Source: an uncultured Dehalococcoidia bacterium
GTDB lineage: Bacteria; Chloroflexota; Dehalococcoidia; UBA2247; RBG-13-53-26
NCBI GenBank assembly: GCA_964492335.1
Contig: CAZBJX010000011.1
Coordinates: forward strand, 878 to 64,877
DNA: 64,000 nt
Reading direction: 5' to 3'
The position numbers were made by a program, and so were the translations under genes. This document shows, in pieces, positions 34,501-51,667 of the stretch; within the stretch, counting starts at the first letter, position 1, and each line of letters starts with the position of its first letter. The notes beneath the pieces were generated by a model that worked only from the letters and a program-made list of their open reading frames with translations, had not been told where the DNA came from and searched no databases.

Positions 34501-35496
34501 TCAGAGGTCCCGGAAGCTCTTCAGCCGTTCGTACTCGATCACCAGGGAGATGGCGGCGTTCTCCGCCTGTATTCCGGCTTCCTCGGCGGCCGCCACCGGG
34601 TTCAGGCCGCCGAGCAGCAGCACCCCCACCCGGCCGGGTTCCACCGGCGCTTCACAGACCGGCTCGCCGGGCCGCCCCATCACCACCAGGCTGCCCAGGC
34701 CGGCCTCCTCGAGCCCGGCCATCACCTCGCCGGCCAGCGGCCGGCACTGCCCGGGCACCTCGGCGAAGTTGCCCAGCACCCGGCCGTCCCCCCTCCCGGC
34801 CGCCCCTGTCACGTCGGTCATCTTGCCCCGGATGAATACCTCCGAAGGATCCAGGGAGGTGCCGCCATAGTGGACCAGCTCCACGAAACGCAGCGGCCGC
34901 CCGGCCCTGATCTGGAGGATGCCCCCGAACCTGCAGTCCATGGGCACGCCGGCCTTCAGCAGCACGCCGGCCACCACGGCGCTGCAGACGGTGGCGAAGC
35001 CAACTTTGCCGGAGGGGATGGCCCTGTCCCCCAGGCTCTCCCCCTCCCGGGCCACGGCCACCATATGGCCTACGGACAGCCCCCTCTTGAAGGCCGCCGC
35101 CATCGCCTTCAGGGCCCCGGGGAACTCCTCCTTCTTGAACACCGACAGGTTGGCCGGCAGCAGCCCCCGGCGCGTCTCCACGTCGAATGTGGTCTGGAAG
35201 GAGACCAGCCCGATGCGGTTGCTGAAGAGGCCCACCTTGTCGCCCACCAACGCGTCGCGCAGCTCCGCAAGGCCGGCCTCGGTGATCCGCCTCCCGTCCC
35301 GGCCCACCAGCCGCGTCAGCCCCCGCTCGTCCATCAGCTTCAGGTGATAGCGCACCGCCCTCTCGCTGAGGTACACACCCTGCTCCTGCAGCTGCCGGCC
35401 GATCACCCTGGCCCCCACCGCCTCGGAGGAGCCCCTCAACACCCTCAGGATGGCGTTGACCTTCCTCTCCACGTCGACGTTGCTGGCGCCAATCAT
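34501..35496 (-). CDS. NrpR-like transcriptional regulator (N-terminal HTH plus DUF128/NrpR regulatory domain)
   Basis: HTH segment (VNAILRVLRGSSEAVGARVIGRQLQEQGVYLSERAVRYHLKLMDERGL), followed by a domain with the archaeal NrpR regulatory-domain pattern. ATG at 35496. Confidence 0.6.
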   Translation of the reverse strand: MIGASNVDVERKVNAILRVLRGSSEAVGARVIGRQLQEQGVYLSERAVRYHLKLMDERGLTRLVGRDGRRITEAGLAELRDALVGDKVGLFSNRIGLVSFQTTFDVETRRGLLPANLSVFKKEEFPGALKAMAAAFKRGLSVGHMVAVAREGESLGDRAIPSGKVGFATVCSAVVAGVLLKAGVPMDCRFGGILQIRAGRPLRFVELVHYGGTSLDPSEVFIRGKMTDVTGAAGRGDGRVLGNFAEVPGQCRPLAGEVMAGLEEAGLGSLVVMGRPGEPVCEAPVEPGRVGVLLLGGLNPVAAAEEAGIQAENAAISLVIEYERLKSFRDL

Positions 35497-35587
35497 CTGA
35501 CTCTGCACCCCGCCGCGCAGCACCATGGCTTCGACAACGCGCTCCGCTGCCGGGACATGCGCCGCCCCGCCCCCGGCGGCTCCGGCC

Positions 35588-36596: not shown

Positions 36597-36889
36597 ATGC
36601 AAGGCAGTATCAGCACGGGGCTCGATGAAGTTGGTATTCGCGACACCGACCCGAAGGCGGGTCGGGTCTTGATTTTCTGAGGCGCCACCAGCGACAGGCC
36701 CGGGTGAGGGATTGCCCGCCTGCGGAACGACTAACACAGCGGGCAAGGAAGGACTGAGGAGACCGACAATAGGCTGAAGAAAGAAGAATCCGTCCCGGGA
36801 AGCGTTGAACCGCCGTCTGTAATCTGGTCACTTGGGCGGCGGGGAGCCAGTAGTGAAACCGACCCATCTCAGGTCGGTTTTTCTTTTTT
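36597..36889 (+). promoter_or_regulatory. about 290-nt cis-regulatory leader RNA B (paralogue of leader A) upstream of the second DPM1-like GT2 gene
   Basis: Extended -10 promoter TGaTATACT at 36583-36591, no credible ORF, lower GC. Internal hairpin plus T-tract at 36637-36672. 3-prime region homologous to leader A and ends in the same terminator hairpin. Confidence 0.6.
36856..36889 (+). terminator. rho-independent terminator at the 3-prime end of leader RNA B
   Basis: AAACCGACC-CATCTC-AGGTCGGTTT followed by TTTCTTTTTTCC; about 105 nt upstream of the GT2 GTG start. Confidence 0.75.
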
Positions 36890-36996
36890 CCAGGCGGTCG
36901 GTCACCGGGAGGCCCGAATCACCAGGCCGAGGCAGCCGGAGCGAAGTGGCCGGAGATCGACCGAGCGGCCCGGCGGTCATCCAGCAGGAGGAAAGA

Positions 36997-37824
36997 GTGT
37001 TTCAGGGTAAGAAGATCGGCGTAGCGGTGCCGGCCTACAACGAAGAGAAGCTGGTGGCGGCCGTTGTGGAGAACATGCCGGCGATTGTGGACCGCATCTA
37101 CATCGTCGATGACGGCAGCACCGACGGCACCCGGGAAGTCGTGTCCGCGCTCTGCGCGAAGCACCCCAGGCTGCAGCTCATCGAGCACAAGAAGAACAGG
37201 GGCGTCGGGGCCGCCATCGTCACCGGTTACCAGAGGTGCCTCGACGACGGCATGGACATCGCCGTCGTCATGGCCGGGGATGACCAGATGGACCCCATGG
37301 AGCTGCCCAAGCTGCTGACGCCTGTGGCCAACGGGCAGGCAGGCTACTGCAAGGGCAACCGGATGGTCTCCTCCAGCACCATGAAGGGCATGCCGCGGCT
37401 GCGGCGGTTCGGGAACTGGCTGCTGAAGTGGCTCACCCGCGTCTCCTCCGGCAACTACCAGATAGACGATCCCCAGAACGGCTACGCCGCTGTCTCGTCG
37501 GATGCCCTTCAGAGGATCAAGCTGGATGACCTCTATCCCTACTACGGCTACTGCAACCACCTGCTGGCCAAGTTCACCGTGGCCGGGGTCAAAGCCGTAG
37601 AGGTGCCCATACCGGCGCGCTACCAGAAAGAGAAGTCCAAGATCCGGTACGGCAAGTACATCCGGAAGGTGAGCTGGCTCCTGCTCAACAACTTCGCCTG
37701 GAGGATGGAGGTCAAGTGGACCTCCATGACCCGCAGGCCGGCGTCCCGTCAACCCGCGGCCGAGATCCGCGAGATCAGCGAGGCCCCCGAGTTCCTGCCC
37801 GGGGTCTCGCGCCGCGCCAGGTAG
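36997..37824 (+). CDS. GT2 polyprenol-phosphate sugar synthase (DPM1-like), second copy
   Basis: GTG at 36997 with AGGAGG 5 nt upstream. Motifs IGVAVPAYNEE, IVDDGSTDGT, MAGDDQMDP. The ORF-track upstream 55 aa is out of gene. Confidence 0.8.
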   Translation: MFQGKKIGVAVPAYNEEKLVAAVVENMPAIVDRIYIVDDGSTDGTREVVSALCAKHPRLQLIEHKKNRGVGAAIVTGYQRCLDDGMDIAVVMAGDDQMDPMELPKLLTPVANGQAGYCKGNRMVSSSTMKGMPRLRRFGNWLLKWLTRVSSGNYQIDDPQNGYAAVSSDALQRIKLDDLYPYYGYCNHLLAKFTVAGVKAVEVPIPARYQKEKSKIRYGKYIRKVSWLLLNNFAWRMEVKWTSMTRRPASRQPAAEIREISEAPEFLPGVSRRAR

Positions 37825-38045
37825 CAGACGGCCGGCGCTCTGTGTTGCCTGCACTATCGCGCTTTGCCCTGGTCAGACAAAGCGCGATCTTCATGTTGAC
37901 GGCAGACGCCGCCGCCCGAAGGCCCCCGACCACCCATCCCCAGGCGGACACCCGGCGGCGCCACGCCCGGGCACAGCCATATTGCGCCCAGTGATAACAT
38001 ACCCTGGTAAGAGGCAGGCGCCGGAAAGGCAGGTCAGGCAGCACA

Positions 38046-38849
38046 ATGAGGCTGGACTTCACCATCGGGAGGTACCAGGAGCTGTGCGAGGCGATCGTGC
38101 AGTCGGGATACACGCCGATGACCGTGCGCGGCTACCTGGAGGCGGACAGGCTGCCGGCGCGGCTGGCCGTGATCAGACACGATGTTGATTCGACGCCGCG
38201 GCAGGAGCCCAAGATCGCCCGGATCGAGCAGGGTTGCGGCATCAGGGCCACCTACTACTTCAGGCACAGGCGCGGCATATTCCGCCCGGACATCATGCGG
38301 CTGATCGCCGGGATGGGCCATGAGGTAGGCTATCACTACGAGGCCATGGACAAGGGCAAGGGCGACTCGCGCAAGGCCATCGAGATCTTCGGCCGCGAGC
38401 TGGCCGACTTCAGGGAGGTGGTGGAGGTCAGGACCATCAGCATGCACGGCAACCCGCTGACGCGGTGGGACAACCGCGACCTGTGGCGCGATCACGATCC
38501 GGCCAGCTTCGGCCTCTCCGGTGAGGCCTACCTCTCGTTTGACCGGTCCAGGATCGGCTACCTGTCCGACACCGGCCGCACCTGGGGCCCGCGGTTCAAA
38601 GTGAAGGACTGGCTCCCTCCCCGTCCCGGCAGCACCGACCCGGCCTACCCCGTCCCCCCGGTGGACTCGACCGACGACCTGATAGCCCTGCTGCGCGGGC
38701 AGCAGGCGGACCATCTCTACCTGAACACCCACGCTGCCCGATGGGCGGACGGCCCGCCGGGCTGGGCCCGGCACTATGCGGAGGACCAGGCAGTGCGGAT
38801 GGTCAAGCGCCTGGTGGCCCTGGCGCGCCGCCCCGCTCCCCCCCCATGA
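38046..38849 (+). CDS. divergent polysaccharide deacetylase-like (CE4-like) protein
   Basis: Motif VIRHDVDS followed by H-rich segments (GHEVGYHYE, SMHGNP) resembling NodB-homology metal-binding motifs. Assignment is tentative. Confidence 0.4.
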   Translation: MRLDFTIGRYQELCEAIVQSGYTPMTVRGYLEADRLPARLAVIRHDVDSTPRQEPKIARIEQGCGIRATYYFRHRRGIFRPDIMRLIAGMGHEVGYHYEAMDKGKGDSRKAIEIFGRELADFREVVEVRTISMHGNPLTRWDNRDLWRDHDPASFGLSGEAYLSFDRSRIGYLSDTGRTWGPRFKVKDWLPPRPGSTDPAYPVPPVDSTDDLIALLRGQQADHLYLNTHAARWADGPPGWARHYAEDQAVRMVKRLVALARRPAPPP

Positions 38850-38899
38850 TGAGAGGCGCCGGCCCGTGTATAATGAGTCCGGCACGGAGGTAACGCTAC

Positions 38900-39934
38900 A
38901 TGACCACAGTGGAAGTCAATGCCCCTGTCACCGTTGAGGAGTGGCGGGCCTTTGTGGACAGCCGGCCTGAGGCCACCTACGCCCACCTCCCCGGGTGGCA
39001 GGCGGTCCTGCGGGACAGCCTGGGGCACAGGCCTTACTACGTTTTCGCCCGCAATGAAGCCGGCCGGCTCTGCGGGGTGCTGCCGCTGTTCCAGGTCCGC
39101 AGCATCCTCTCCGGGAGCCACCTGGTGTCCACCCCATTTGTCAGCGAGTGCGGCCCCGTGGCCGAATCGGACGAGGCGCTCAGGGCCCTGGTGGACCGGG
39201 CCCGGGGCCTCTGCGACGAGCTCGGGTGCCGGTACATGGAGATCCGGGCATCGCGCCAGCTGCCCCTGGACCTGCCGGTGAGCGAGTACTTCTACACCTA
39301 CTTCGTCCCGCTGTCCGAGCCGCAGAAGGCATGGAAGGCCCTCGACCACCGGACGCGGAACGCGGTCAACAGGTCCCGCAAGAGGGGCGTGGCGGTCAGC
39401 ACGGACGACTCGCCGGGCGCCATGAAGGCCTTCTACGAGGTGAACCTGCGGACCAAGACCCGGCTGGGATCACCGGCCCACCCCCTGGAGTTCTTCCAGG
39501 CGATGCAGCGGGAGCTGGGCGACTGCTTCCGGCTCTACACCGCCGACTACCAGGGCCGCGCGATCTCGGCCGGCGTGGCCATACGCTACAACGGGGTGGT
39601 CAACGCCACCCACCAGGCCTCGGATCGCAGCTACCTGGAGCACCACCCCAACGAAGCCGTGTCCTGGCAGCAGATGGAGGACGGAGGCCGGGACGGCTTC
39701 CACTACCTCGATTTCGGCAAGACGCCGGCGGACAACCCGGGGCTGGCACAGTACAAGAAGAAGTGGAAGGCCGAGGAGAAGCAGCTCTATTACTACTACT
39801 ACCCGAGCGTACCGAAGCTGATGGGGTCGGACCGGCAGGGGACCAGGTTCAAGTTGGTCACCGGGGTGTGGAAGAGGCTGCCTCTCTCCATCGTCCGGCG
39901 GCTGGGCCCCTTCGCCTTCAGGCAGCTCGACTAG
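38900..39934 (+). CDS. FemAB-like / BioF2-like GNAT-fold acyltransferase (second copy)
   Basis: Same family pattern as 6564..7646 (two GNAT-like halves, HYLDFGKTPADNPGLAQYKKKW). ATG at 38900 preceded by GGAGG. Confidence 0.6.
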   Translation: MTTVEVNAPVTVEEWRAFVDSRPEATYAHLPGWQAVLRDSLGHRPYYVFARNEAGRLCGVLPLFQVRSILSGSHLVSTPFVSECGPVAESDEALRALVDRARGLCDELGCRYMEIRASRQLPLDLPVSEYFYTYFVPLSEPQKAWKALDHRTRNAVNRSRKRGVAVSTDDSPGAMKAFYEVNLRTKTRLGSPAHPLEFFQAMQRELGDCFRLYTADYQGRAISAGVAIRYNGVVNATHQASDRSYLEHHPNEAVSWQQMEDGGRDGFHYLDFGKTPADNPGLAQYKKKWKAEEKQLYYYYYPSVPKLMGSDRQGTRFKLVTGVWKRLPLSIVRRLGPFAFRQLD

Positions 39935-39967
39935 CGGGCGGGCCGCGGGGAAGCTGGAAGGACAACG

Positions 39968-41047
39968 ATGAAGATACTGGTAGACCTCAATCACCCGGTG
40001 GACATCAATTTCTTCAAGAACGCCATCAGACTGTGGACGGCGGAGCACGGCTGCCAGGTGGACATCTGCCTCCAGCCCCGGGGCAAGATGGTGGCCATCC
40101 TCCAGAGCGAGCTCCCGGAGTATGCCTTCACCACCATGGGCACCTTTCAGAAGACGATGGCCCGCAAGATCCTGATGCACGCCTGGCGGTTCCCCCAGTT
40201 CGCCAATCACGTGCGCCGGGGCCGGTACGACGTGGTGGCCTCCTTCGGCGGGATCGTGGTCTCCCACGCCACCTGGCTGCTGGGCAAGCCCTCCGTCATC
40301 TTCGATGACGACATCGAGTACGGCATCGGCTACTGGCCCTACAAGCCCTTCGCCACCCGGCTGCTGCTCCCGGCCCAGGTCCCGGCCACCGGCAGGAACA
40401 TCATGCGCTACAAGGGGTTCAAGGAACTGGCTTACCTGCACCCCAACTACTTCCGGCCCGACGAGGGGGCCCTTGCCGAGTACGGCCTGGAGCCATCCTC
40501 ATACGTCTTCGTCCGGGAGGTCAGCAAGGTCAGCGGGAACTACGCCCACCTGGAGACCGGCGGGCTGGCCGGGGTCTGCGCGCGGGTGAAGGAACAGGGG
40601 CTCATGGTGGTCCTCTCCCTGGAGGACAAGTCCCTGAAGGACCAGTTTGCCCCCCACTGCATCATCCTCCAGGAGCCGGTAAGGGACATCCACTCGCTGA
40701 TGCACTTCGCCCGGCTGACCATCTCCTCCGGGGACACCATGGCCCGGGAGTCATGCCTGGCAGGCACCCCGGTCATCTACACCGGGGGCCGGACCATGTC
40801 GGTCAACTCCGAGCTGGTCCGGAAGGGCATCTTCTTCCAGCCCGGCGCCGGTCAGCCCACCATGGGCCTGGTCAACATGATCGTGGAGCAGGGCCTCAAG
40901 GAGAAGACCGGCCGGATACTGCGGGAGGCCCTGTCGGGCGAGTGGGAGGACACCACCAGGGTGATCGTATCCAACGTGCTCGAGGCCGGGGCTGCCAGCG
41001 CCCGCGCAGGCCGGCCGGCAAGGGAGCGCAATGGCAAGACAGGATAG
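39968..41047 (+). CDS. DUF354 family protein (GT-B-like, glycosyltransferase/epimerase-related)
   Basis: N-terminus MKILVDLNHPVDINFFKNAI matches the DUF354/COG1817 consensus start (MKIWIDI.NP..V.FF). Confidence 0.65.
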   Translation: MKILVDLNHPVDINFFKNAIRLWTAEHGCQVDICLQPRGKMVAILQSELPEYAFTTMGTFQKTMARKILMHAWRFPQFANHVRRGRYDVVASFGGIVVSHATWLLGKPSVIFDDDIEYGIGYWPYKPFATRLLLPAQVPATGRNIMRYKGFKELAYLHPNYFRPDEGALAEYGLEPSSYVFVREVSKVSGNYAHLETGGLAGVCARVKEQGLMVVLSLEDKSLKDQFAPHCIILQEPVRDIHSLMHFARLTISSGDTMARESCLAGTPVIYTGGRTMSVNSELVRKGIFFQPGAGQPTMGLVNMIVEQGLKEKTGRILREALSGEWEDTTRVIVSNVLEAGAASARAGRPARERNGKTG

Positions 41048-41807
41048 GGCCACCCCGCCAGCCCCGGGAGAGCAGGGCCCGGCGATGGAGCCCATGCCGC
41101 AGGCCATCAGGCAGGAGGACCGGGAGTACTTCGACAGCCGGCAGGAGAAGGCCGACGCCATACTGGCGGACATCCAGTCCCTGGGGCATCCCGACATCGG
41201 TGGCCGTCGCATACCGGTCCTCGAGGTGGGCGCCAACAGCTGCTTCATCGCCCAGCGCCTGGCCAGCGTCACCCGGTGGGACATCCATTGCCTGGAGATC
41301 GAGGCGGAGCGGCTGTTCAAGTACCCCGAGATCTGCCGCTCGTTCAAGTCCGTCCTGGCCGACGCCACCGCCATCCCCTTCAAGGACGCGTCCTTCGATC
41401 TGGTGTTCTGCAATCACACGCTGGAGCACATCGTGCCCTACCGGGCCTGCATCAGCGAGATGCTGCGGGTCACCAGGGCCGGCGGACTCCTCTACCTGGC
41501 CTTCCCCAACCGCGACCGCCTGGTGGACGAGATCGGACTGGGCTGGTCCAAGACGAAGTCGAACCTGGCCTGGTACTTCGACCGGGCCTTCCGGGCCTTC
41601 ACCATCGAGAGCCGGGTGGACCACCACATCGGCCTGGGATGCGGGGAGACCAGGGTGGCCTGCCGGGGGCACAGGGTGACCTGCCTGAGCAAGGGCCACG
41701 CCACCCGCTCCCTGGGGAAGACCGCCCGGCGCATCGCCGGGCGGGTCCCGGCCGGCATCTTCGACCGGTTCTCCCCGGTGGGCGTGTACCTGGTGGAGAA
41801 ACGGTAG
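41031..41807 (+). CDS. class I SAM-dependent methyltransferase
   Basis: Motif I-like VLEVGANSCFIAQRL, acidic loop DIHCLE, motif FDLVFCNHTLEH. Start overlaps the DUF354 tail; an alternative ATG at 41082. Confidence 0.7.
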   Translation: MARQDRATPPAPGEQGPAMEPMPQAIRQEDREYFDSRQEKADAILADIQSLGHPDIGGRRIPVLEVGANSCFIAQRLASVTRWDIHCLEIEAERLFKYPEICRSFKSVLADATAIPFKDASFDLVFCNHTLEHIVPYRACISEMLRVTRAGGLLYLAFPNRDRLVDEIGLGWSKTKSNLAWYFDRAFRAFTIESRVDHHIGLGCGETRVACRGHRVTCLSKGHATRSLGKTARRIAGRVPAGIFDRFSPVGVYLVEKR

Positions 41808-41809
41808 CC

Positions 41810-42967
41810 GTGGTCATCGCCATCGTCGAGGCCATGGACCCCGATTCCCCGGCCATCGGGGGCGGAGAGACCTACTCGCGAAACCTGCTGCAGTACCTCC
41901 TGAAGACCGGGGTGCCCACGTTCTTCATCGGCGTGTCTGCCGCCAGGGGCCGGACCACCGAGGGCCATTTCACCTTCCTGCCGGTCTCCAGCAGGACAAC
42001 CCTGGGCAACCAGGGGTTCGTGCTGCGGCTGGCCCTGCGCCGGGCCTGCGCTTCGCTGCCCCGCGGCGCCATCGTCCACGTCCAGCGCCCGGAATACGCG
42101 CTGCCCTTCGTCCTGTTCTGCCATGGGCGCCCCAGAGTGGTTACACTTCATGGGATGATATTGCACGGGGTGAGGCTCAAACAGTCCCCCATGGTGGCCC
42201 GGGCTTACAGGATGGTGGAGTCGATATGCCTGCGGCGCAGCGCTGCTGTAATCGCCGTGGATGAAGGCACCAGGGAGTTCTACGAGAAGGAGTACCCCTG
42301 GCTGCGAGGAAGGCTCCGCGTGGTGCCCATCGGGATAGACCTGGGCCGGTTCCGTATCATGGACCGCGCCGCCATGAGGGCGGCGCACGGTTTCGGTGCC
42401 GCGGACAAGGTGGTCATGTTTGTCGGCCGCCTGGAGATCGAGAAGGACTTGGGCTTTCTGATCGAGAGCTTCCGCCTGGTCCTCCCCCGCGTGCCGGAGG
42501 CGCGCCTGGCGCTGGTGGGCGACGGGCGCCACCGCGCGGCGCTGGAGGAGATGGCCCGGGACCTGGTGCCCGACAGGGTCCTCTTCACGGGGTCCAGGCC
42601 GCCGGATTCCATCCCGGAGTTGCTTAACTGCGCCGATGTGCTAACATTGTGCTCGATGTACGAAGGCAGCCCGACCACGGTCAAGGAGGCCCTGGCCTGC
42701 GGTGTCCCGGTGGTGACCGCACCCGTGGGAGACGTGGCCCGGGTCATCAAGGAGAGCGCCACCGGCCGGATCGTCCCCAAGGATCCGGCCCGGTATGCCG
42801 CGGCCATCATCGAGGTGCTGACTGCCCCTGATCCGGAGGGCGCGCGGAGGGCCTGCGTCCGGGCCGCCGCGGAGTTCGGGTTCGACCGGGTCGGCGAGCG
42901 CACCGCAGAGGTCTACGAGGAAGTGGCCGCCCATGGGCAGATGAAGCGCGCGCGTGCGCAGAGGTAA
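41810..42967 (+). CDS. glycosyltransferase family 4
   Basis: GTG at 41810 after GGAGAAA, 2 nt past the methyltransferase stop. GT4 C-terminal motif (CSMYEGSPTTVKEALACGVPVVTAPVGD). Confidence 0.8.
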   Translation: MVIAIVEAMDPDSPAIGGGETYSRNLLQYLLKTGVPTFFIGVSAARGRTTEGHFTFLPVSSRTTLGNQGFVLRLALRRACASLPRGAIVHVQRPEYALPFVLFCHGRPRVVTLHGMILHGVRLKQSPMVARAYRMVESICLRRSAAVIAVDEGTREFYEKEYPWLRGRLRVVPIGIDLGRFRIMDRAAMRAAHGFGAADKVVMFVGRLEIEKDLGFLIESFRLVLPRVPEARLALVGDGRHRAALEEMARDLVPDRVLFTGSRPPDSIPELLNCADVLTLCSMYEGSPTTVKEALACGVPVVTAPVGDVARVIKESATGRIVPKDPARYAAAIIEVLTAPDPEGARRACVRAAAEFGFDRVGERTAEVYEEVAAHGQMKRARAQR

Positions 42968-42971
42968 CAGC

Positions 42972-44933
42972 GAGATGAGAAGCCCCTGGGAGGACCACCG
43001 GAAGCTGCCGGGAACCAGCCAGTCCGATATCTGGCTCAAGCTGGGGGCCCTGCTCTGCGTCGCCTTCGTGATAATCGCCCTCCTCCAGATGCACCGGGCC
43101 CCGGCCATCGGCTACGAGCTTTCCATCTACACCGCCACTCCCACCAGCGTCTGGTTCCTGCTGCTGCTGGCCCTGCTGGGCGGGCTGGGCATCGTCATCC
43201 ACGAGCTGGCCACCGGAAGGCACCAGGAGACGCGGACCTGCCTGGTGGGCTTCGCGGTGGTCCTGCTGGCCGTCACGGCCTTCCTCTGCCTGCCGGTCAT
43301 CCGGGACTACTTCAGCTGGAGAGGCGACCAGCTGGCCCACATCGGCTTCGTCAAGGACATTGCCTCGGAGAACAGGCTGCCCGGCTACAACCCCTACCCG
43401 GTGACCCACACCCTCCTCTACGAGCTCTCCGCCATTTTCAACTGCTCGATAGACAAGGCCGTCAACCTCAACACGCCCCTGATCTTCGTCGTGTTCGTGC
43501 TGGGGACCTACCTGCTGACCACCGTGGTGCTGCCCGGCAGAGGGCACCAGATCACCGCCACCCTCTTCGCCGCCGCGACCGTAGCCGCGCTCAGCCGCTA
43601 CAACCTGGTGCCGAACACCTGGTCCATACTCCTGCTGCCGGTCTTCTTCTACTGCTACTTCAGGCGCGATGAGCCGCCTTTCAAGATCCTGCTGGTGGTG
43701 CTGATCCTCATCTACCCCTTCCTCCACCCCCTGTCGGCGCTGATGATCATCGCCTCCATGGCCGCCATCGAGTTTCTGAAGCCGGCCTATTCCCGGCTGC
43801 TGCGGCGCATCGGAATGGAGCCGCCCCACTGGGTCTCTGTCGGGCCGGTCGTCTGGCCGCTGGCCATGCAGCTGCTGGTGTTCCTGCCGTGGGTTTTCAC
43901 CCGCAGCGCCTTCCGCAGCAACGTGGACGCCCTGTGGTGGCAGCTCATCAACTTCAGCGGGTCGAGCCAGGGGTCGCACGCCATGGCCAGCCTGTCCAAG
44001 GTGGACCTGGACGCCCTGGGGGTCTTCTTGATTATCGTGAAGCTCTACGGCCAGATCTTCCTGGCGGGCGTCTTCGCCTGCATCGGGATCATCCTGCTCT
44101 GGCGGCACCTGCGCAGAGGCGGCCGTGGCGACAGCGCCGGCGGGAGCGTCTGGGACCTGGAGCCCGCCGGCGACCTGGAGACCGGCGAGCCGGCCGGCGG
44201 CGACGACAACCGCATCCGCCTGGGCTACGTGGCCTTGCTGTTCCTGCTGTCCACCCTGGCCTACTTCGCGTTCTACGCCGGGGCCCCGGGGGCGGAGTCG
44301 CTCTCCGCCACCAGGATCGTGGTCTATGTGGAGGTGGCCGCCATCCCGCTGGTGGGCTTCGCCCTGTGGGAGATCGCCAGCCGGGCCAGCGCCCGCTGGC
44401 TCGCCTGGGGCTTCGTTTCGGCCGTCATCATCGCGGCCGCCATCCTTAACGTGCTGGGGCACTACACTGCTCCATACCAGTTGCGCCCCAATGACCAGGT
44501 GACCCACTCGGACATCGACTGCATGGAGTGGCTCCTGCACGAGAAGGACCCGGCCACCTTCACCTTCTTCATCATGTCGTCTCCGGACCGCTTCTCACAG
44601 GCCATACTGGGAGCCACAGTGACCTCCACCAGGACGGACGTCAAGGATGTTCAGTGGCTCCAGTTTGCCGACCACTTCGGCTACGTGCCGTCCAAGACAC
44701 CCGGCAGCACGGAGAGCTACAACACCGTGGGAGAGCAGTTCCGGATGGACATATACGGCAACATCCACATGTACGATAAGGCGGCCTACCAGACAGTCTG
44801 GAAGAGCCTGGACCGGGTCAACGACGCCGACTTCCAGAGGCTCGAGCAGGACCCGACGGTCAACCGCATATACTCGGACGGGGCCTCCGACGCCTACCAC
44901 ATAACCGGCCACAGACAGGACACGGGCGCCTAG
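42972..44933 (+). CDS. large polytopic membrane protein (second copy) with C-terminal soluble domain; candidate GT-C-type glycosyltransferase or polymerase
   Basis: At least 12 TM helices over 450 aa, then a soluble C-terminal about 190 aa. ATG at 42972 with AGAGG RBS; an alternative GTG at 42954. Same architecture and operon position as 12798..14513. Confidence 0.55.
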   Translation, partial: EMRSPWEDHRKLPGTSQSDIWLKLGALLCVAFVIIALLQMHRAPAIGYELSIYTATPTSVWFLLLLALLGGLGIVIHELATGRHQETRTCLVGFAVVLLAVTAFLCLPVIRDYFSWRGDQLAHIGFVKDIASENRLPGYNPYPVTHTLLYELSAIFNCSIDKAVNLNTPLIFVVFVLGTYLLTTVVLPGRGHQITATLFAAATVAALSRYNLVPNTWSILLLPVFFYCYFRRDEPPFKILLVVLILIYPFLHPLSALMIIASMAAIEFLKPAYSRLLRRIGMEPPHWVSVGPVVWPLAMQLLVFLPWVFTRSAFRSNVDALWWQLINFSGSSQGSHAMASLSKVDLDALGVFLIIVKLYGQIFLAGVFACIGIILLWRHLRRGGRGDSAGGSVWDLEPAGDLETGEPAGGDDNRIRLGYVALLFLLSTLAYFAFYAGAPGAESLSATRIVVYVEVAAIPLVGFALWEIASRASARWLAWGFVSAVIIAAAILNVLGHYTAPYQLRPNDQVTHSDIDCMEWLLHEKDPATFTFFIMSSPDRFSQAILGATVTSTRTDVKDVQWLQFADHFGYVPSKTPGSTESYNTVGEQFRMDIYGNIHMYDKAAYQTVWKSLDRVNDADFQRLEQDPTVNRIYSDGASDAYHITGHRQDTGA

Positions 44934-45002
44934 GCATCTCCTGGCCCACGCGCGCGGCCTGGCCCGCGCGCGGGCCAGGCCGACAGTGGAGCAGCATATA
45001 GA

Positions 45003-46097
45003 ATGACCACCGGGCAGTCCGCGAAGCCAGACCGGCCGGGACAGCCCCACGTCCCCCTGGGGGCCGGGCAGCGCTGGGGGCTGCGCCTGGCCGGAGCGGC
45101 CGGCGCCCTGGGGGCCATCGACGCGTACGGGGCGCTCAGAAGGCGCCTGGTCCGGTGGTCCGCCTGCATCCTGTCGTATCACCGGGTGGGCCCCGGGACC
45201 GAGCTGCCCACCGACATTCCGCTGACAACGCCCGCGGACTTCGAGCAGCAGGTGCTCTACCTGCGCCGGCGCTACCAGGTGATGCCCCTGGCCCGGCTGG
45301 GCCGCGCCATCAGCGAGGGCCGGCCGCTGCCCCGCAACACGGCGGTCATCACCTTCGACGACGGCTACCGCGACAACTACCTGCACGCCTACCCCATCCT
45401 GCGAAAGCACGGCGTTCCGGCCACCATCTTCCTGGCCACCGCGCACATCGACCAGGGGCACCCCTTCTGGTGGGACCGGGTGAGCTGCGCCGTTCTCCTG
45501 ACAACCGAGCAGAGGCTCGAGAGCGACCGCCTGGGGTCCTACGACCTCAGCTCCACGGAGCGCAGATGGGAAGCCGTCAGCGCCATGGACGTGCGCCTGA
45601 AGCAGATGCCCGACCACGAGAAGAACCAGGCCATCGAGGAGATGGTGCGCAGGCTGGCAGCGGACGTGCCGGCCGCCATGGCCCGGGACATGATACTCAC
45701 CTGGGACGACGTCGCCGAGATGGCGGGCAACGGCATCACCTTCGGCTCTCACACCGTCCACCATCCCACGCTGATAGGGCTGCCCCTGGACCAGGCCCGG
45801 AGTGAGATCGCTGACTCCCGGAAACGGATTGAGGAGAAGACGGGCCAGCCCTGCGACACCTTCGCCTACCCCGACGGGCGCGAAGGCAACATCAGCCCGG
45901 GCATCAGGGCCATCCTGGCCGAGAACGGCTACGTGTGCGCCGTGTACGCCCTGCCTAACCGGCTGGTGGCGCCCGGGGCGGACCCCTACGGCCTGCCCAG
46001 GGTGTCCCCCAAGTGGGACTACACCACCTTCCGGCTGAGCGTCTCGGGGCTCTACCCGGACCTGTCCCGGGTGATGGACCGGGGGAGGAAGGCATGA
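45003..46097 (+). CDS. polysaccharide deacetylase (CE4, NodB homology domain)
   Basis: Motif 1 ITFDDGYRDNY, His motifs (FGSHTVHHP). ATG at 45003 directly after a TATAGAAT -10-like element, which suggests a leaderless mRNA. Confidence 0.8.
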   Translation: MTTGQSAKPDRPGQPHVPLGAGQRWGLRLAGAAGALGAIDAYGALRRRLVRWSACILSYHRVGPGTELPTDIPLTTPADFEQQVLYLRRRYQVMPLARLGRAISEGRPLPRNTAVITFDDGYRDNYLHAYPILRKHGVPATIFLATAHIDQGHPFWWDRVSCAVLLTTEQRLESDRLGSYDLSSTERRWEAVSAMDVRLKQMPDHEKNQAIEEMVRRLAADVPAAMARDMILTWDDVAEMAGNGITFGSHTVHHPTLIGLPLDQARSEIADSRKRIEEKTGQPCDTFAYPDGREGNISPGIRAILAENGYVCAVYALPNRLVAPGADPYGLPRVSPKWDYTTFRLSVSGLYPDLSRVMDRGRKA

Positions 46098-47185
46098 GCG
46101 CCGCCGGGCCCCGCTGGACCGCCAGGCCCTACCGCGAAGGGGACGAGGAGAGGATTCTCGATCTCTGGAAGGCGGTCTACCCGGACCGCGGGTACGTCCG
46201 CGAAGAGTGGCTGGCCTGGTGGCGGTGGCTCTACCGGGACAACCCCGCCGGCGCGGGGGTCATCGCCCTGGCTGAAGACGAGGGCAAGATCATCGCCCAC
46301 ACCGCCGAGATACCGATGCTGATGAAGATCGGCGACGCCGAGGTCCTGGCCGCCATCGGCCTGGACGCCATGACCCACCCGGACTACCGCCGGCAGGGGA
46401 CCTACGCGGCCACGGTGGACCTGCGGCGCCTGGAGAGCCAGAGACGCGGCATCCAGGCGGAGTACGCCTTCCGCAGCAAGTACTCCTACGCCTACCCGGG
46501 GCTCTCTGACAAGGTGGGCATGTTCGACGCCGTCACCCTGCCGAAGGTATTCCGGCCGCTGGACTGGCGGGCCACGCTCGGGACCCAGACCGGCAGCAGG
46601 CTGGTCCTGGCCCTCGGTCCGGCCGCGGGCAGACTGCTCACCGCGGCCGCCCTGCGCCCGGCGAAGGCCCCCCTGCCGGAGAAGACGCGCCTGGCCCTGA
46701 CGGACCGCTTTGACGAGCGCTTCGACCAGCTGTGGGCCAGGGTATCCGGACGGTACCGGACCACCGTGTCACGCAAGAAGGAGTACCTCAACTGGCGGTA
46801 CGTCGCCGTGCCCGACCGGCGCTACACCATACTGACGGTCGGGAATGCGGATGCCATCTGCGGCTACGCCGTCTTCAGCTGCGCCGACACCGAGGGGACC
46901 ATGACCGGGCTCATCGCCGAGGTGGTCGCCGAGTCCCGGCCGGTGGAGGAGTGCCTGATCAAGGCGGCGGTGCAGCGCTGCCGCACGGGGAAGGCGGCCC
47001 TGGTGTGGGGCGCCAGGCTGGCGGGCACATCGCTGGCGGCGGCCTACAGGCGGCAGGGCTTCATCGCCGCGCCCCGGTCCAAGACCAAGCTGGTCACCGC
47101 CTGCGCCTTCTCGCCCGATCTGGTAGCGCAGTTGCGGCGGCCGGATGCCTGGTTCCTGCAAATGGGCGACTCCGACGAGGCGTGA
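46094..47185 (+). CDS. two-domain GNAT-family acyltransferase
   Basis: ATG at 46094 overlaps the upstream TGA (ATGA). Two GNAT-like halves (motif RRQGTYAAT). Confidence 0.6.
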   Translation: MSAAGPRWTARPYREGDEERILDLWKAVYPDRGYVREEWLAWWRWLYRDNPAGAGVIALAEDEGKIIAHTAEIPMLMKIGDAEVLAAIGLDAMTHPDYRRQGTYAATVDLRRLESQRRGIQAEYAFRSKYSYAYPGLSDKVGMFDAVTLPKVFRPLDWRATLGTQTGSRLVLALGPAAGRLLTAAALRPAKAPLPEKTRLALTDRFDERFDQLWARVSGRYRTTVSRKKEYLNWRYVAVPDRRYTILTVGNADAICGYAVFSCADTEGTMTGLIAEVVAESRPVEECLIKAAVQRCRTGKAALVWGARLAGTSLAAAYRRQGFIAAPRSKTKLVTACAFSPDLVAQLRRPDAWFLQMGDSDEA

Positions 47186-47242: not shown

Positions 47243-49563
47243 TCACCGGAGGCCGGGCGGGCGCTTCCTCCGCAGCAGCTTCCCCGCCAGCCCGGGGAGG
47301 GCGCCCATCACACCCCTGACCAGCCCTATTTCGTCCGGCCGGAAGAACCTGACTATGTAAAGGAGCAGAGGGAAGGTGAGAATGAGCAGCACCTTCAGGA
47401 AGCCGGCCATCAGCACCTGGGACTGCTTGTCGGCCGCCCCGGACTCCACCGGTGCCATGCCGGACACATCAGCCAGCGCATCGGACAGGGTAACCCCGGT
47501 CAGGTCCCTGTCGCCGGTATTGGTCACCACCACCTGGAAGGTGATGGGGTCGCCGGCGGCGTCCACCACGCCGCCCGGGCCGTCGCCGCCGACATCGGTG
47601 ACCGCCAGCACGATCCTCCAGGCCGCCCAGCCTTCCTTGTAAACGGGCACCTCCTGGCTGTCGCTGCGGCTGGCCAGCCCGGAGCAGCTGACGGTAGCGG
47701 TGTTCCCGATGACGCCGCCATCTTCGTAGCCCTCCAAGTCAGCCTCGGTGGTGTCATACCAGTACATCCAGGTCCACGTCTCCCCGGCGTCGAGAACCTC
47801 ATCGTCGTTGGCGGACTTCCTCAGAGTGAAGTTCTCGGAGAGATCAACCAGCGAGTCGGTCAGCCCCACCCCGGAGAGCGACACCACCCCGGTGTTGGTT
47901 ACCTTCGCCTCGTAGCGGATGCGGTCGTTGGGGGCGTCCACCACCCCGCCGGGGCCCTGGCCGCCGACATCGGTGACCGTCAGGCGAATGGTGCAGCTGG
48001 CGTCCCGGGCCACCGGCACCAGCTCACCATCACTGCGGCCGCCCAGCTGGTCAGAGCTGGCGGTGGCCATCGCCAGGATGTACCCGTCGGCGTCGCCGGC
48101 ATCCAGGTCGGCTTCGGTAACAACGTGGGAGTAGGTCCAGGCCCAGCTCTCCCCGGCCTGAAGGATGCCATCGTGATTGGTGGACCGCTCCAGGTAGCTG
48201 CGCACCCCTGCGGCCGCCGCCAGGCAGGCGGCGAAGACCACCGCCGCCACCAGAACCAGCTTGACCACCCGGCCCCACTCGTACTTGATGGGGTAGTAGC
48301 GCTGCGAGATGAAATAGGCGCCCACCGGCAGGACGGCATAGCCGATCAGCGTGGCCACCCCCGCCCCCATGATGCCCAGGGGCGGTATCAGGACATAGGA
48401 CAGGGCCACTTTCACCACCGCCCCCGATATGGTCAGCAGGGCCGTGTTCACGGTCTTGCCCTCGATGTAGATGCCCGCCGCCATCTGGAAGTAGCAGCCA
48501 TACAGCACGTAGGACAGCGCCACCAGCGGGATTACGTTGCGGGCGCTGTGGAAGGGCGACGTTGCCATGACCAGCACCAGCTCCTCCCCCAGGGCCGAGA
48601 GAGCCACGGCCGCGAACAGGGCCACCGCCAGGAAGTAGGTGAAGACCCGGGTGTAGGTCTCCCCCGCCCGGGGCTTGAGCGCGGTGGAGAACAGGAAGGG
48701 CAGCCACGCCAGCTGCATGGGGCCCACCAGGATCCCCTGTATCACCATGCCGAACTTGAACCCCAGGGAGTATACTCCGGCCGGGCCGATGCCCATCAGC
48801 CCGGTCAGTATCCACCGGTCGGCCATGACCAGCATCCAGCCAGCCAGCCCGGACGGTATCAACGGCACCCCGTAGGCAAGCATGGCCCGGAGCTTCTGGC
48901 GGGAGATCCGGACGCCCACCCGCCGCAGCAGGCTCCCCATCAGCAGCGTGTAGAGGATGCCGCAGGTGATCAGCTCCGAGTAGAGCACGCCCAGGACCCC
49001 CTTGTGCAGCACGAGCACGAAGACGATGTTCAGGGAGACCGCCATGACGAACTGGGCGATGGAGGCCGCCGCATACCTCACCGGCGTGCCCCTGGCCCGG
49101 TAGACCGTGAGGACTGTGTTGATGCCCTGGTTGAAGAAGAGGGACACGAACAGTATGCGGAAGAAGTAGGGGTCCTGGGAGCGGTCGCGCCCCGGGTCCC
49201 TGAGGACCAGGGAGGATATGGGGCCCGCAAAGATCTCCAGAAGAATCAGGGCCGCCAGCGACGTGGCCATCAGGAAGAGCACCGCCGTGCTGGCCACCCT
49301 GCGCTTCCCTTCCTCGTCCTCCCGCCCGGCATAGAAACGCAGCATGGCGGTGGCCACGCCCATCCCCAGGGTGATCCCCAGCACCGCTGACGTGGTGTTG
49401 AGGAGCTCGATGACGCCGTACCCTTCGGTACCCAGCCTGCGCGTGTACACCGGCACAAGCAGGAAGCCAATGAACTGGCTCAGGACAGTGCTGAGGCCGT
49501 AGATGATGGAGTCCCGCGACAGCGAGAAGACCTGCTTGAAGACGGACTGCTGGCTCTCAGACA
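47243..49563 (-). CDS. Wzx-like flippase fused to two DUF11-type repeat domains and a C-terminal TM anchor
   Basis: Residues about 76-565 form a 12-14 TM MOP flippase. Then two tandem about 115-aa repeats (TEADLD...ATV...VTDVGGxGPGGVVDA...V.NTG...L.GV.L.D.L.D.S). Then a TM helix (VLMAGFLKVLLILTFPLLLYIV) and a basic tail. GTG start near 49563; the ORF-track N-terminal 75 aa is probably extension. Confidence 0.65.
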
Positions 49564-49963
49564 CAGCCCCGTATTCTAGCACATCCGCCTGTGCGCAGCC
49601 CAAGGCATGCCGGCACGGCTCCACACCTGGCCCCTGCGAGCATGCCCGCCCGCTGCCCCGGGGCGGGCCCGTCCCTGCCGGCCGTGCCCTGCAAGACCAC
49701 GGGCCCGGAATGAGAGGTTTCCGTGACAGGGCCTGCCGCCGCCGCGGCCAACCGCAGAAGACGCCCACAAGCGCATGCTGTGTTAACATCCTGTGACCCC
49801 CGGATTACCCCTTGAGAGTCCGGGGAGAGCCTCCAGTGATACACTGTCCCCCACAGCAGAGAATACAGCAGGCCGAGCAGCGGGGGCAGCGCCCTGCCCA
49901 TTCCCGGACCACCTGATAGTTACTATCCGAGGTCCCTTTGACTCAGCCTGCAAGGGGTGGTTA

Positions 49964-51667
49964 ATGACTAAGTTCCTTCTGTCCGCTATCCTGGTGATCT
50001 CCTTGATGGCCGGCGTGCTCGCCACCGCAGTCGGCGACAGCACGCCGGCCCTGGCCGCGCCCACCTACGGCGCCGGGACCAGCGCCGGCGCCAGTCCCAT
50101 CGGCGGGGGCAACGGCTACGTCTCCCCCCACGGGTACTCCCAGACCAAAGCCACTTACGTGGTGAGGACCCTGAGTGAACTGAATGCGGCCATGGCCAAG
50201 GCCACCTCCGGCCAGGTCATCTGGATACCGGACGGCACCACCATCATGGTCAACTCGGTGGCCAACTCTGGCGGCCGGATGTGGCTTCCCAACCCTCTCA
50301 AGCAGGGGGTGGTCCTGGCATCCAACCGTGGGCAGGGCGGCGCGGCCGGTGGCAAGATCAAGCTGACCGCGACAGTCACCGGGGCCTTTGCCACCGGCAT
50401 ATGGTGCCAGAGCAACTCCGTCATCTCCGGGCTGACTATTGAAGGCCCGACCAACCTCGGCATAAGCGGCTCCATGTCAACGCCAACCCTGTTCGCTTTG
50501 AAGATATCGGGGGCCGTCAATGTGGAGGTTGAGAACTGCCACCTCTACAACTTCCCGCAGGGCATCATCACCATAGATAACATCAAGGCCTCCGGCCCGG
50601 CGAACCTCAACTGGAACAGCGCCAACCGGCACAAGATACACCACTGCGAGATCCACGGCGCCCAGGCCCACGGCTGGGGCTACGGTATCCTGCAGAGCAA
50701 CGCCAATGGGAAAGGGATTGCCGCCCATGTCTACGCCTGCAAGCTCTATGACAACCGCCACAGCATAGCCTGTGACCACGGGGAGCCGTACAGCTACGAG
50801 ATTGCCCAGTGCATCATTGGCGACTCGTGGTACTGGTCGCAGAACCGCCCCGGCGGCACCAAGTACTACGCCTGTCAGGTGGACGCTCATGGCATGGGGT
50901 CAAGTAAGGGCTATGCCGGGCGGCACTACGAGGTGCACCACAACACGTTCTCGGCCAATGGCAACAAGGCCAACTGCGGCATCAGGGGATACCCCTCTGA
51001 TCAGCACCGCATCTACAATAACTGGACCAAGAAGACCACTCACAGCGGGGCCTACCCGGCCGGCGGCGCGTACGAGGTGAAGATAGGGAGCCTGGTTGAC
51101 CTCGAGGGGTCCGAAGGCGGGGCGTGGGGCGGGGCCAACAACATGCCCCAGTACAAGGTGTACGTCTACGCCAACTGGTACGGGACTTCGGGCCCCGGCA
51201 CAACCCCCTACACCAACGTCGCCCCCGTCCTGAACGAGATCGGCGACAAGAGCGTGGTAGCCGGCAGCACACTCTCGTTCACCGTGTCGGCCTACGATCC
51301 CGACGGGGACCCCCTCACCTTCGCCGCATCCAACCTGCCTCAGGGAGCCACCTTCACCGCCAGCACCCGGACCTTCGCCTGGACGCCGGACGAGACCCAG
51401 GCCGGCATCTACGCCAGCGTGCGTTTCCAGGTGAGCGACGGCTCCCTGACCGCCTCCGAGTCGATCACCATCACGGTCGCCGCCGCCAGCACCAGCAGCG
51501 GGCCTGACGTCAACGGCGACGGCGCCGTCAACTCTCTGGACATGATCTGCATCGGCCAGCGCTGGGGCCAGACCGGCGCCAGGGGCTGGATACCGGAAGA
51601 CATCAACCGCGACGGAGTGGTAAACGTCCTGGACGCCAACATCGTCGGCCAGCGCTGGACAGGATAG
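49964..51667 (+). CDS. secreted right-handed beta-helix protein with cadherin/Ig-like domain and C-terminal dockerin
   Basis: ATG at 49964 with AAGGGGTGG RBS, signal peptide, beta-helix repeats. Putative Ig/cadherin-like segment (VAGSTLSFTVSAYDPDGDPLTF). Two dockerin calcium-binding repeats (DVNGDGAVNSLD ... DINRDGVVNVLD). Confidence 0.75.
   Translation: MTKFLLSAILVISLMAGVLATAVGDSTPALAAPTYGAGTSAGASPIGGGNGYVSPHGYSQTKATYVVRTLSELNAAMAKATSGQVIWIPDGTTIMVNSVANSGGRMWLPNPLKQGVVLASNRGQGGAAGGKIKLTATVTGAFATGIWCQSNSVISGLTIEGPTNLGISGSMSTPTLFALKISGAVNVEVENCHLYNFPQGIITIDNIKASGPANLNWNSANRHKIHHCEIHGAQAHGWGYGILQSNANGKGIAAHVYACKLYDNRHSIACDHGEPYSYEIAQCIIGDSWYWSQNRPGGTKYYACQVDAHGMGSSKGYAGRHYEVHHNTFSANGNKANCGIRGYPSDQHRIYNNWTKKTTHSGAYPAGGAYEVKIGSLVDLEGSEGGAWGGANNMPQYKVYVYANWYGTSGPGTTPYTNVAPVLNEIGDKSVVAGSTLSFTVSAYDPDGDPLTFAASNLPQGATFTASTRTFAWTPDETQAGIYASVRFQVSDGSLTASESITITVAAASTSSGPDVNGDGAVNSLDMICIGQRWGQTGARGWIPEDINRDGVVNVLDANIVGQRWTG

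Follow-up and report, generated by a model that had tools for sequence, protein, structure and literature searches.

A flippase gene with an insert at a glycan-biosynthesis locus

We analyzed a 64-kb stretch of DNA from an uncultured Dehalococcoidia bacterium (hereafter the window) and describe a minus-strand gene (47243..49564) whose product is a predicted glycan flippase with domains of the Pfam family DUF7507 (CLIPPER_2) nested between its last two transmembrane (TM) helices. Residue numbers refer to the 773-amino-acid (aa) product, MSESQQSVF..., read from a GTG at 49564 to the stop at 47243-47245. In the list of open reading frames (ORFs), the frame 47243..49789 on this strand is open for 848 codons counted from the first upstream ATG. 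An earlier reading of the same DNA (the original prediction) had taken these 848 codons as one uninterrupted frame, with an upper bound of 49563 that lies at approximately the GTG. In our alignment of the family (A1), the start of the orthologues (MSQPSVF...) coincides with this GTG, and independent gene calls yield 779 aa from another GTG 6 codons upstream of 49564. The 75 codons of in-frame 5' extension (49565..49789, minus strand) lie inside a divergent intergenic region of ~400 bp and are unmatched in every orthologue. Because orthologues and independent gene calls start near 49564, codons 1-75 of the frame are very likely non-coding; the long frame is indeed open, but it overstates the product.

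The frame itself is no assembly artefact. Nine contigs, from a number of independent assemblies (Logan SRR15734598 and ERR14146316; ENA ERZ28615095 and ERZ25038437), encode the exact protein, and the uninterrupted frame is kept in orthologues that are 68-71% identical (three Dehalococcoidia/Chloroflexi contigs of metagenome-assembled genomes, MAGs). At least eight orthologous clusters, at 57-75% identity, retain it. The continuous frame described in the original prediction is confirmed, and the GC content at third codon positions (GC3) is 0.87-0.92 in the flippase part and the insert part alike.

A TGCTAGAAT motif that resembles an extended -10 element lies ~10 nt upstream of the GTG start (within 49565-49600, minus strand). 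As a -10 element it would mean a very short leader or none. A scan for consensus promoters upstream of the flippase gene called no promoter, this motif included.

The flippase has a predicted 14-helix layout

The product matches Pfam PF01943 (Polysacc_synt) at 55.2 bits against a cutoff of 28.2, and PF13440 (Polysacc_synt_3) at 41.3 bits against a cutoff of 23. The HfsF and SpoVB equivalogs of NCBIfam score far under their cutoffs, so no specific equivalog can be named for the flippase; the same scan also picks up a DUF11-type repeat. The hydropathy profile contains 12 core helices, a very hydrophobic helix at residues 433-456 (peak 2.72), the repeats and a last helix at 714-738. A full-length AlphaFold2 (AF2) model built from a 60-sequence alignment agrees with these helices, with a mean predicted local distance difference test (pLDDT) score of 90.7 and a predicted template modeling (pTM) score of 0.83. 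The best match of this model in the Protein Data Bank (PDB), found with Foldseek, is WzxE (9g9n; E = 4.8e-10, TM-score 0.82 normalized to the target). Further matches are MurJ in several states (6nc6, target-normalized TM-score 0.77) and MATE transporters. Sequence identity to solved 14-TM flippases of the MOP (multidrug/oligosaccharidyl-lipid/polysaccharide) superfamily is 13-17%, and a PDB profile search with the flippase alignment returned only weak MATE/MOP matches. Profile matches and the model together give good support to a core (TM1-TM12, residues 1-423; 48296..49564, minus strand) that is a MOP-superfamily flippase, as the original prediction held, and one for lipid-linked glycans of the polysaccharide transporter (PST)/Polysacc_synt family. 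Translocation of a polyprenyl-diphosphate-linked oligosaccharide is predicted by analogy with this family.

Two further helices follow TM12 and are kept in relatives that have no insert, which gives a 14-TM layout. TM13 (residues 430-460; 48185..48277, minus strand) is placed by hydropathy, the AF2 model and the TM13 of relatives; it is predicted to run from inside to outside and is the first helix of the 'groove' hairpin. TM14 (residues 713-737; 47354..47428) is supported by the AF2 helix and by alignment with the TM14 of the insert-less relatives. The tail, predicted to be cytoplasmic (residues 738-773; 47246..47353) and delimited by alignment and charge, carries a conserved RFFRPDE motif, continues with an amphipathic helix and finishes in the basic residues RRKRPPGLR. 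In the model, the layout is MurJ/TacF-like, with two six-helix bundles (TM1-6 and TM7-12) followed by the TM13-TM14 hairpin. That this hairpin would serve as a lipid-tail groove is assumed from the literature. The label 'Wzx-type' used earlier therefore holds for a MOP oligosaccharide flippase and is loose beyond that: solved WzxE has 12 TM helices without TM13-14, the mark of Wzx in the strict sense, whereas 14 are predicted here.

The repeats lie in the TM13-TM14 loop

In alignment A1, insert-less relatives (P0009-P0029; ~500-530 aa) are 43-66% identical to the window protein, and P0009 is 66% identical to it in the core. They join TM13 to the next helix by a loop of ~10 aa and continue into an RFFRPxE tail. 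The window protein aligns with them on either side of the repeats. TM14 aligns residue for residue, with G721, K724 and P732 invariant, and the tail positions F740, P743 and E745 are likewise invariant, insert-less relatives included. Because the insert-less relatives align on both sides, the alignment identifies the last helix as the family's own TM14, not an acquired anchor, and shows that the repeats were inserted, over ~255 aa, between TM13 and TM14 instead of being fused to the C-terminus. The original prediction had described a flippase followed by repeats, an order that the alignment contradicts. It had also described a final hydrophobic helix and a basic tail; both are present (residues 713-737; nine Lys/Arg residues within 35 aa), although the helix is not a new anchor.

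In a neighbor-joining tree of the core alone, the insert-bearing proteins are monophyletic and the insert-less P0009 is their sister. The P0009 locus is a related cluster, with a dockerin protein, a GNAT protein, a deacetylase and a large membrane protein. The monophyly and this related cluster suggest that the insertion happened once, at an orthologous locus.

The inserted segment of ~256 aa (residues 457-712; 47429..48196, minus strand), delimited by the gap relative to insert-less relatives, by charge and by the AF2 model, is strongly acidic, with 43 Asp/Glu residues vs 13 Lys/Arg. The last 35 residues of the protein hold nine Lys/Arg vs two Asp/Glu, and the loop between TM12 and TM13 is basic too. 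Both termini of MOP flippases are cytoplasmic. With a cytoplasmic N-terminus and an even number of helices before TM13, the insert is predicted to lie outside the cell. The acidic insert, the basic tail and the topology of 14-TM family members make this side the most likely one, in line with the extracytoplasmic placement proposed earlier.

Two domain lengths, cut out of phase

The original prediction had noted two tandem repeats of ~115 aa, and the repetition holds up: over 114 aa, residues 463-576 share 51% identity with residues 586-701, and the alignment score is 263 vs 34 ± 6 for shuffled sequences. A Pfam assignment, which had been proposed as a check, gives DUF7507 (PF24346, CLIPPER_2) at 79.1 bits for the whole protein against a cutoff of 27, in three stretches, with a weak match to DUF11. 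The repeats had been called DUF11/CARDB-like. They are indeed DUF11-like immunoglobulin (Ig)-type beta-sandwiches, more precisely DUF7507/CLIPPER_2, and a relationship to CARDB was not found. Motifs in common with canonical CLIPPER_2 domains are VTDVGG..AGD.I.Y...V.NTG...LTGV.L.D and GETWTW.Y...T.AD.

The repeat units are out of phase with the domains. When the insert was scanned by piece, the first ~68 aa past TM13 matched positions 59-95 of the DUF7507 profile, the C-terminal half. The middle 121 aa matched positions 16-94, the whole domain, at 44.8 bits, and the last 71 aa ahead of TM14 matched positions 15-52, the N-terminal half. We refer to these segments as Xc (residues 463-521; 48002..48178, minus strand), directly after TM13; Y (residues 522-643; 47636..48001), a complete and contiguous CLIPPER_2 domain; and Xn (residues 644-710; 47435..47635), directly before TM14. 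A local hidden Markov model confirmed the order of C-terminal half, whole domain and N-terminal half, matching Xc at its positions 44-126 and Y at 2-126. In Pfam, Xn also matched DUF11 at positions 14-44. When Xn was joined to Xc in silico, DUF7507 was matched once and without a break over positions 15-94, and the score of 51.4 bits exceeded that of the middle domain. In an alignment with repeats of giant surface proteins, the end of the N-terminal half (..APVESGAA) and the start of the C-terminal half (..STNHDGILQAGESW) meet in one loop of the canonical domain. By these profile boundaries, the insert is exactly two domain lengths, cut out of phase.

We also modeled the insert alone with AF2 (pLDDT 86.4, pTM 0.80; half-domains at pLDDT 82-95). 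The secondary-structure elements of Xc and Xn sum to those of Y, and a pTM of 0.80 for the isolated insert would be unexpected if the half-sandwiches were unpaired. We infer that Xc and Xn pack into one beta-sandwich above TM13 and TM14, joined to them by ~10-residue linkers, with Y alongside. This packing is supported by the pLDDT of the half-domains, the pTM, the summed secondary structure and the higher conservation of the halves described below. A PDB sequence search with the insert returned only chance-level MukF matches and no close solved structure. Foldseek against the PDB retrieved generic Ig-like sandwiches only (adaptin ear, complement macroglobulin domains and the pilin BcpA), with E-values of ~1e-4 and TM-scores of at most 0.5.

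The site of the isopeptide-forming lysine is Leu or Val in both domains in 10 out of 10 orthologues. The isopeptide aspartate is present in both domains of the window protein; four out of 10 orthologues have Ser or Thr at this site of the middle domain. The asparagine is kept in the middle domain of nine out of 10 orthologues and lost from the split domain. Because the lysine is lost, both inserted domains are non-cross-linked versions rather than cross-linked stalk units.

The most variable stretch of the insert is the intradomain loop of the middle domain. In four proteins (P0007, P0008, P0091 and P0014) this loop differs and is ~6 aa longer (..DNTTP.DP.DDF.A.FAGGDTD.DG.., A1 columns ~575-600). 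The aspartate site of the middle domain is Thr in P0008, P0091 and P0014 and Ser in P0007.

Conservation, age and rarity of the insert

Both junctions are fixed and the insert is full-length in all ~10 known orthologues. Identity among orthologues is 57-65% in the insert vs 66-75% in the core and, within the insert, 66-70% in the half-domains vs 60% in the contiguous domain. The ratio of nonsynonymous to synonymous substitution rates (dN/dS, NG86 method) lies at 0.47-0.49 in the insert, compared with 0.30-0.37 in the core, values for which dS is probably underestimated given the extreme GC3. On these rates the insert is under purifying selection, less constrained than the core.

The GC content and GC3 of the insert are like those of the core, and its closest free-standing repeats among the best 150 matches of the search described below are only 38-45% identical, in giant Methanosarcina and Acidimicrobiales proteins. 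A recent foreign origin was rejected on both grounds. Since the composition matches the host gene and the free-standing repeats are distant, the acquisition is judged to be old.

We searched 1.84 billion representative proteins exhaustively with HMMER and considered the best 150 of 27,468 matches. Among these 150, flippase-DUF7507 fusions were found only in this family (P0002 and the fragment P0014). The others included multi-repeat DUF7507 proteins, many longer than 1,000 aa and with up to 38 matched stretches, plain flippases of ~490 aa, and a few flippases with cytoplasmic enzymes past TM14 (a GT2 domain in P0208 and a GNAT domain in P0220). A flippase whose C-terminal segment opens with a lipobox-like sequence (P0168) may be a gene-call fusion and was not taken as a precedent. 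More distant fusions may score beneath the best 150 matches. Loci encoding the insert-bearing flippase numbered three in a scan of 185,579 species genomes and two in the JGI metagenome set. In the literature searched, no flippase was described as having a periplasmic domain inserted into it, and the single listed paper that mentions DUF7507 says nothing of transporters. The fusion is unusual, as the original prediction supposed, and homologous fusions do exist elsewhere, in orthologues 68-71% identical in Dehalococcoidia/Chloroflexi MAGs. The architecture is real and conserved, but rare and confined to a narrow uncultured clade.

Gene neighborhood

Next to the flippase gene lies a plus-strand glycan-biosynthesis cluster (36832..47185), delimited by Pfam and NCBIfam scans, hydropathy and synteny. 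It holds genes for a GT2 glycosyltransferase, an unknown 267-aa protein, a FemAB/GNAT-like protein, a DUF354 protein, a GT4 glycosyltransferase, a 659-aa membrane protein, a polysaccharide deacetylase and a GNAT protein. Together with the flippase and a divergent dockerin gene, it spans ~36.8-51.7 kb of the window. Synteny with two orthologous loci (L001 and L002) is conserved at 70-87% aa identity, and the neighborhood of the orthologues is in unchanged order.

The 659-aa polytopic membrane protein (42954-44933, plus strand) is a candidate Wzy-like polymerase, with at least 11 hydrophobic segments and a soluble C-terminal part of ~150 aa. It has no match in Pfam or NCBIfam. Its conserved counterparts in L001 and L002 are 70-77% identical, and the ends of L004 and L008 carry large genes that are similar but have no annotation.

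Divergent from the flippase, a secreted dockerin protein (49964..51667, plus strand) has a signal-peptide-like hydrophobic segment. It combines an N-terminal beta-helix-like region with a He_PIG/Big_9 Ig domain and a dockerin of type I, and it is kept in L001-L003 and, in L008, beside the sister flippase that lacks the insert. Within the 64-kb window, a cohesin partner was not seen. We rejected the dockerin protein as the specific partner of the insert because the insert-less sister locus carries it too.

Four further observations concern the surrounding genes. At 38900-41047 (plus strand), a FemAB protein like the XrtA/PEP-CTERM-associated type (TIGR03019, E = 1.6e-59, under the cutoff) is followed by the DUF354 gene. 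The pair suggests an exopolysaccharide locus of the exosortase-linked kind; no exosortase was seen in the window. By their longest ORFs, the deacetylase gene and the GNAT gene have 85 nt in common (46013-46097), and gene calls on identical contigs start the GNAT gene 27 codons later. These calls leave an overlap of 4 nt, and the 85-nt overlap is an artefact of the ORF list. An NrpR-like regulator (PF01995 NRD1_2 plus HTH_12; 34501-35526, minus strand) stands in a bacterial, Chloroflexi-type context; the NrpR family is best known as a nitrogen repressor in methanogenic archaea. At 29499-32058 (minus strand), a gene for a TreT-like trehalose synthase adjoins one for a protein with an MscS beta-domain and DUF5752, and the two may form an osmoadaptation pair.

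Proposed arrangement and alternatives

We consider it probable that this is a glycan-cluster flippase with an out-of-phase insert two CLIPPER_2 lengths long, whose split domain caps the TM13-TM14 hairpin. The flippase would serve a Wzx/Wzy-type surface-glycan cluster, with a lipid-linked oligosaccharide as its substrate. Within a single small clade, a stretch two repeats long would have been taken from a tandem CLIPPER_2 array into the short TM13-TM14 loop, giving the chain order TM13, C-terminal half, whole domain, N-terminal half, TM14. Reassembly of the split domain would bring the two ends of the insert together; with a cut in mid-domain the ends meet, as a tight helical hairpin requires. 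The result would be an acidic two-domain cap at the outer mouth of the TM13-14 lipid-tail groove, by analogy with MurJ and TacF. It might act as an accessory platform, outside the transport mechanism itself, for docking or hand-off of the flipped glycan head group or of a partner such as the 659-aa candidate polymerase. This function is speculative and argued by analogy. We think it rather unlikely that the split domain and its contiguous partner work together as a functional cap, catching the lipid-linked glycan once it is flipped or docking the polymerase or an envelope component.

Several points weigh against the capped-hairpin arrangement. The insert region of the AF2 alignments is covered by only ~10 sequences, and the pairing of Xc with Xn is predicted from the lines of evidence given above. 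The topology of the insert rests on the positive-inside rule and family precedent. The Foldseek matches gave no functional lead on what the insert binds, and the role known for CLIPPER domains is that of stalk units, not of binding units. The insert-less sister locus has matching neighbor types (dockerin, GNAT, deacetylase and large membrane protein), which leaves no partner gene that varies together with the insert. The faster evolution of the insert relative to the core could also be that of a tolerated passenger.

Such a passenger would be a folded and selfishly stable pair of beta-sandwiches, itself without function, housed in a permissive loop. The higher dN/dS and lower identity of the insert, its narrow clade, the lack of a co-varying partner and the loss of isopeptide chemistry all fit this explanation. 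It is a serious rival but somewhat doubtful, since the insert has stayed full-length with fixed junctions despite substantial divergence, its membrane-proximal halves are its best-conserved parts and its dN/dS is well below 1. Another way to fold the same chain would be for each repeat to form its own circularly permuted domain (Xc with the N-terminal half of Y, and the C-terminal half of Y with Xn), as the ~115-aa repeat unit, a C-terminal half followed by an N-terminal half, might suggest. We regard this as improbable: the junction between the two halves of Y is a normal intradomain loop, Pfam matches residues 522-643 without interruption, and the 5-7-residue linkers between Xc and Y and between Y and Xn look too short to connect, in a single sandwich, the first strand with the late strand that it pairs with.

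Two explanations dispense with an insertion altogether. The linear order of 13 helices, repeats, one helix and a basic tail would also be produced by a C-terminal fusion of two DUF11-type domains with a newly acquired terminal TM anchor, and related flippases with enzymes fused past TM14 exist (P0208 and P0220). The homologous helix and tail of the insert-less relatives, with their six invariant residues, and a 14-TM layout that is already that of MurJ/TacF-type MOP flippases make such a fusion very improbable. It could also be argued that two separate genes, one for a flippase and one for a surface protein, were artefactually joined through a frameshift, a missed stop or chimeric assembly. 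The source is metagenomic, high-GC DNA yields long spurious ORFs and the 848-codon frame over-extends at its 5' end. Yet the exact protein comes from different runs and assemblers, divergent orthologous clusters keep the frame, GC3 is the same in both parts, purifying selection is evident and flippase sequence resumes past the insert, and an artefact is scarcely credible.

MOP flippases such as MurJ, Wzx, TacF and Rft1 have been studied as compact transporters, and the handover of their products to polymerases and ligases is poorly understood. A rigid extracytoplasmic module on the TM13-14 hairpin would offer a handle on this handover and mark the outer exit region; it might serve in pull-downs or help cryo-electron microscopy as a fiducial. 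If the functional cap is real, flipping and the next assembly step would be linked physically in organisms whose envelope is unusual (S-layer, often wall-less). The protein would then be the first among MOP flippases to have a hand-off module of its own on the extracytoplasmic side, and a natural example of domain insertion solved by circular permutation. The half/whole/half order would be a natural case in which elongated Ig-like repeats, whose ends point in opposite directions, are fitted into a tight loop: with an integer number of repeat lengths taken out of phase, both ends would meet in one reconstituted domain. The significance is limited by the narrow uncultured clade and by the speculative role of the insert.

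Comparison with known systems

TacF, MurJ and Rft1 have an external groove domain made of TM13-14, which is proposed to accommodate the polyprenyl tail, whereas Wzx proper is without these helices and WzxE has 12 TM (PMC13385700). Like the window protein, TacF (teichoic acid of S. pneumoniae) and MurJ (lipid II) have two six-helix bundles and a TM13-TM14 hairpin, but their TM13-TM14 loop is short where the window protein carries ~255 aa of predicted Ig-like domains. WzxE (9g9n), the best structural match for the core, belongs to the same Pfam family and flips a repeat unit for a Wzy-type polymerase. The two helices that Wzx in the strict sense lacks are both predicted in the window protein, and the loop between them is the insertion site.

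The nearest precedent for a flippase linked to a carbohydrate-binding-type domain is M. tuberculosis MviN (Rv3910), in which a MurJ-type flippase is covalently linked to such a domain (PMC12599244). The additional parts of MviN lie past TM14 (a cytoplasmic pseudokinase, an additional TM helix and an outer domain), whereas the module of the window protein is nested in the TM13-14 hairpin. The carbohydrate-binding-type domain of MviN is extracytoplasmic, as Gee et al. are said to have reported in 2012. The window protein is not of the MviN type: a kinase-like Pfam hit is absent from it, the insert precedes TM14 and the inserted domains belong to another family.

CLIPPER_2 is the new name of DUF7507, a CnaA-like Ig domain that is compact, has seven strands and is the sister of DUF11/CLIPPER. 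It is typically found in long tandem arrays in the extracellular stalks of bacterial and archaeal surface adhesins, where a Lys-Asp-Asn isopeptide bond often stabilizes it (PMC12617251). Judging from the Lys-Asn bond, CnaA-like domains pair their first strand with a late C-terminal one (PMC12617251). The insert shares Pfam membership and motifs with the CLIPPER_2 and CLIPPER domains (PF24346 and PF01345) of these fibrillar adhesins. However, the canonical domains form long arrays in secreted or anchored proteins, whereas two domain equivalents, one of them apparently split and permuted, stand here inside a transporter without the isopeptide lysine. The protein belongs to the known MOP/PST flippases, and its CLIPPER_2 modules stand in a non-canonical setting: nested in a transporter, one of them apparently split, and both devoid of the isopeptide lysine.

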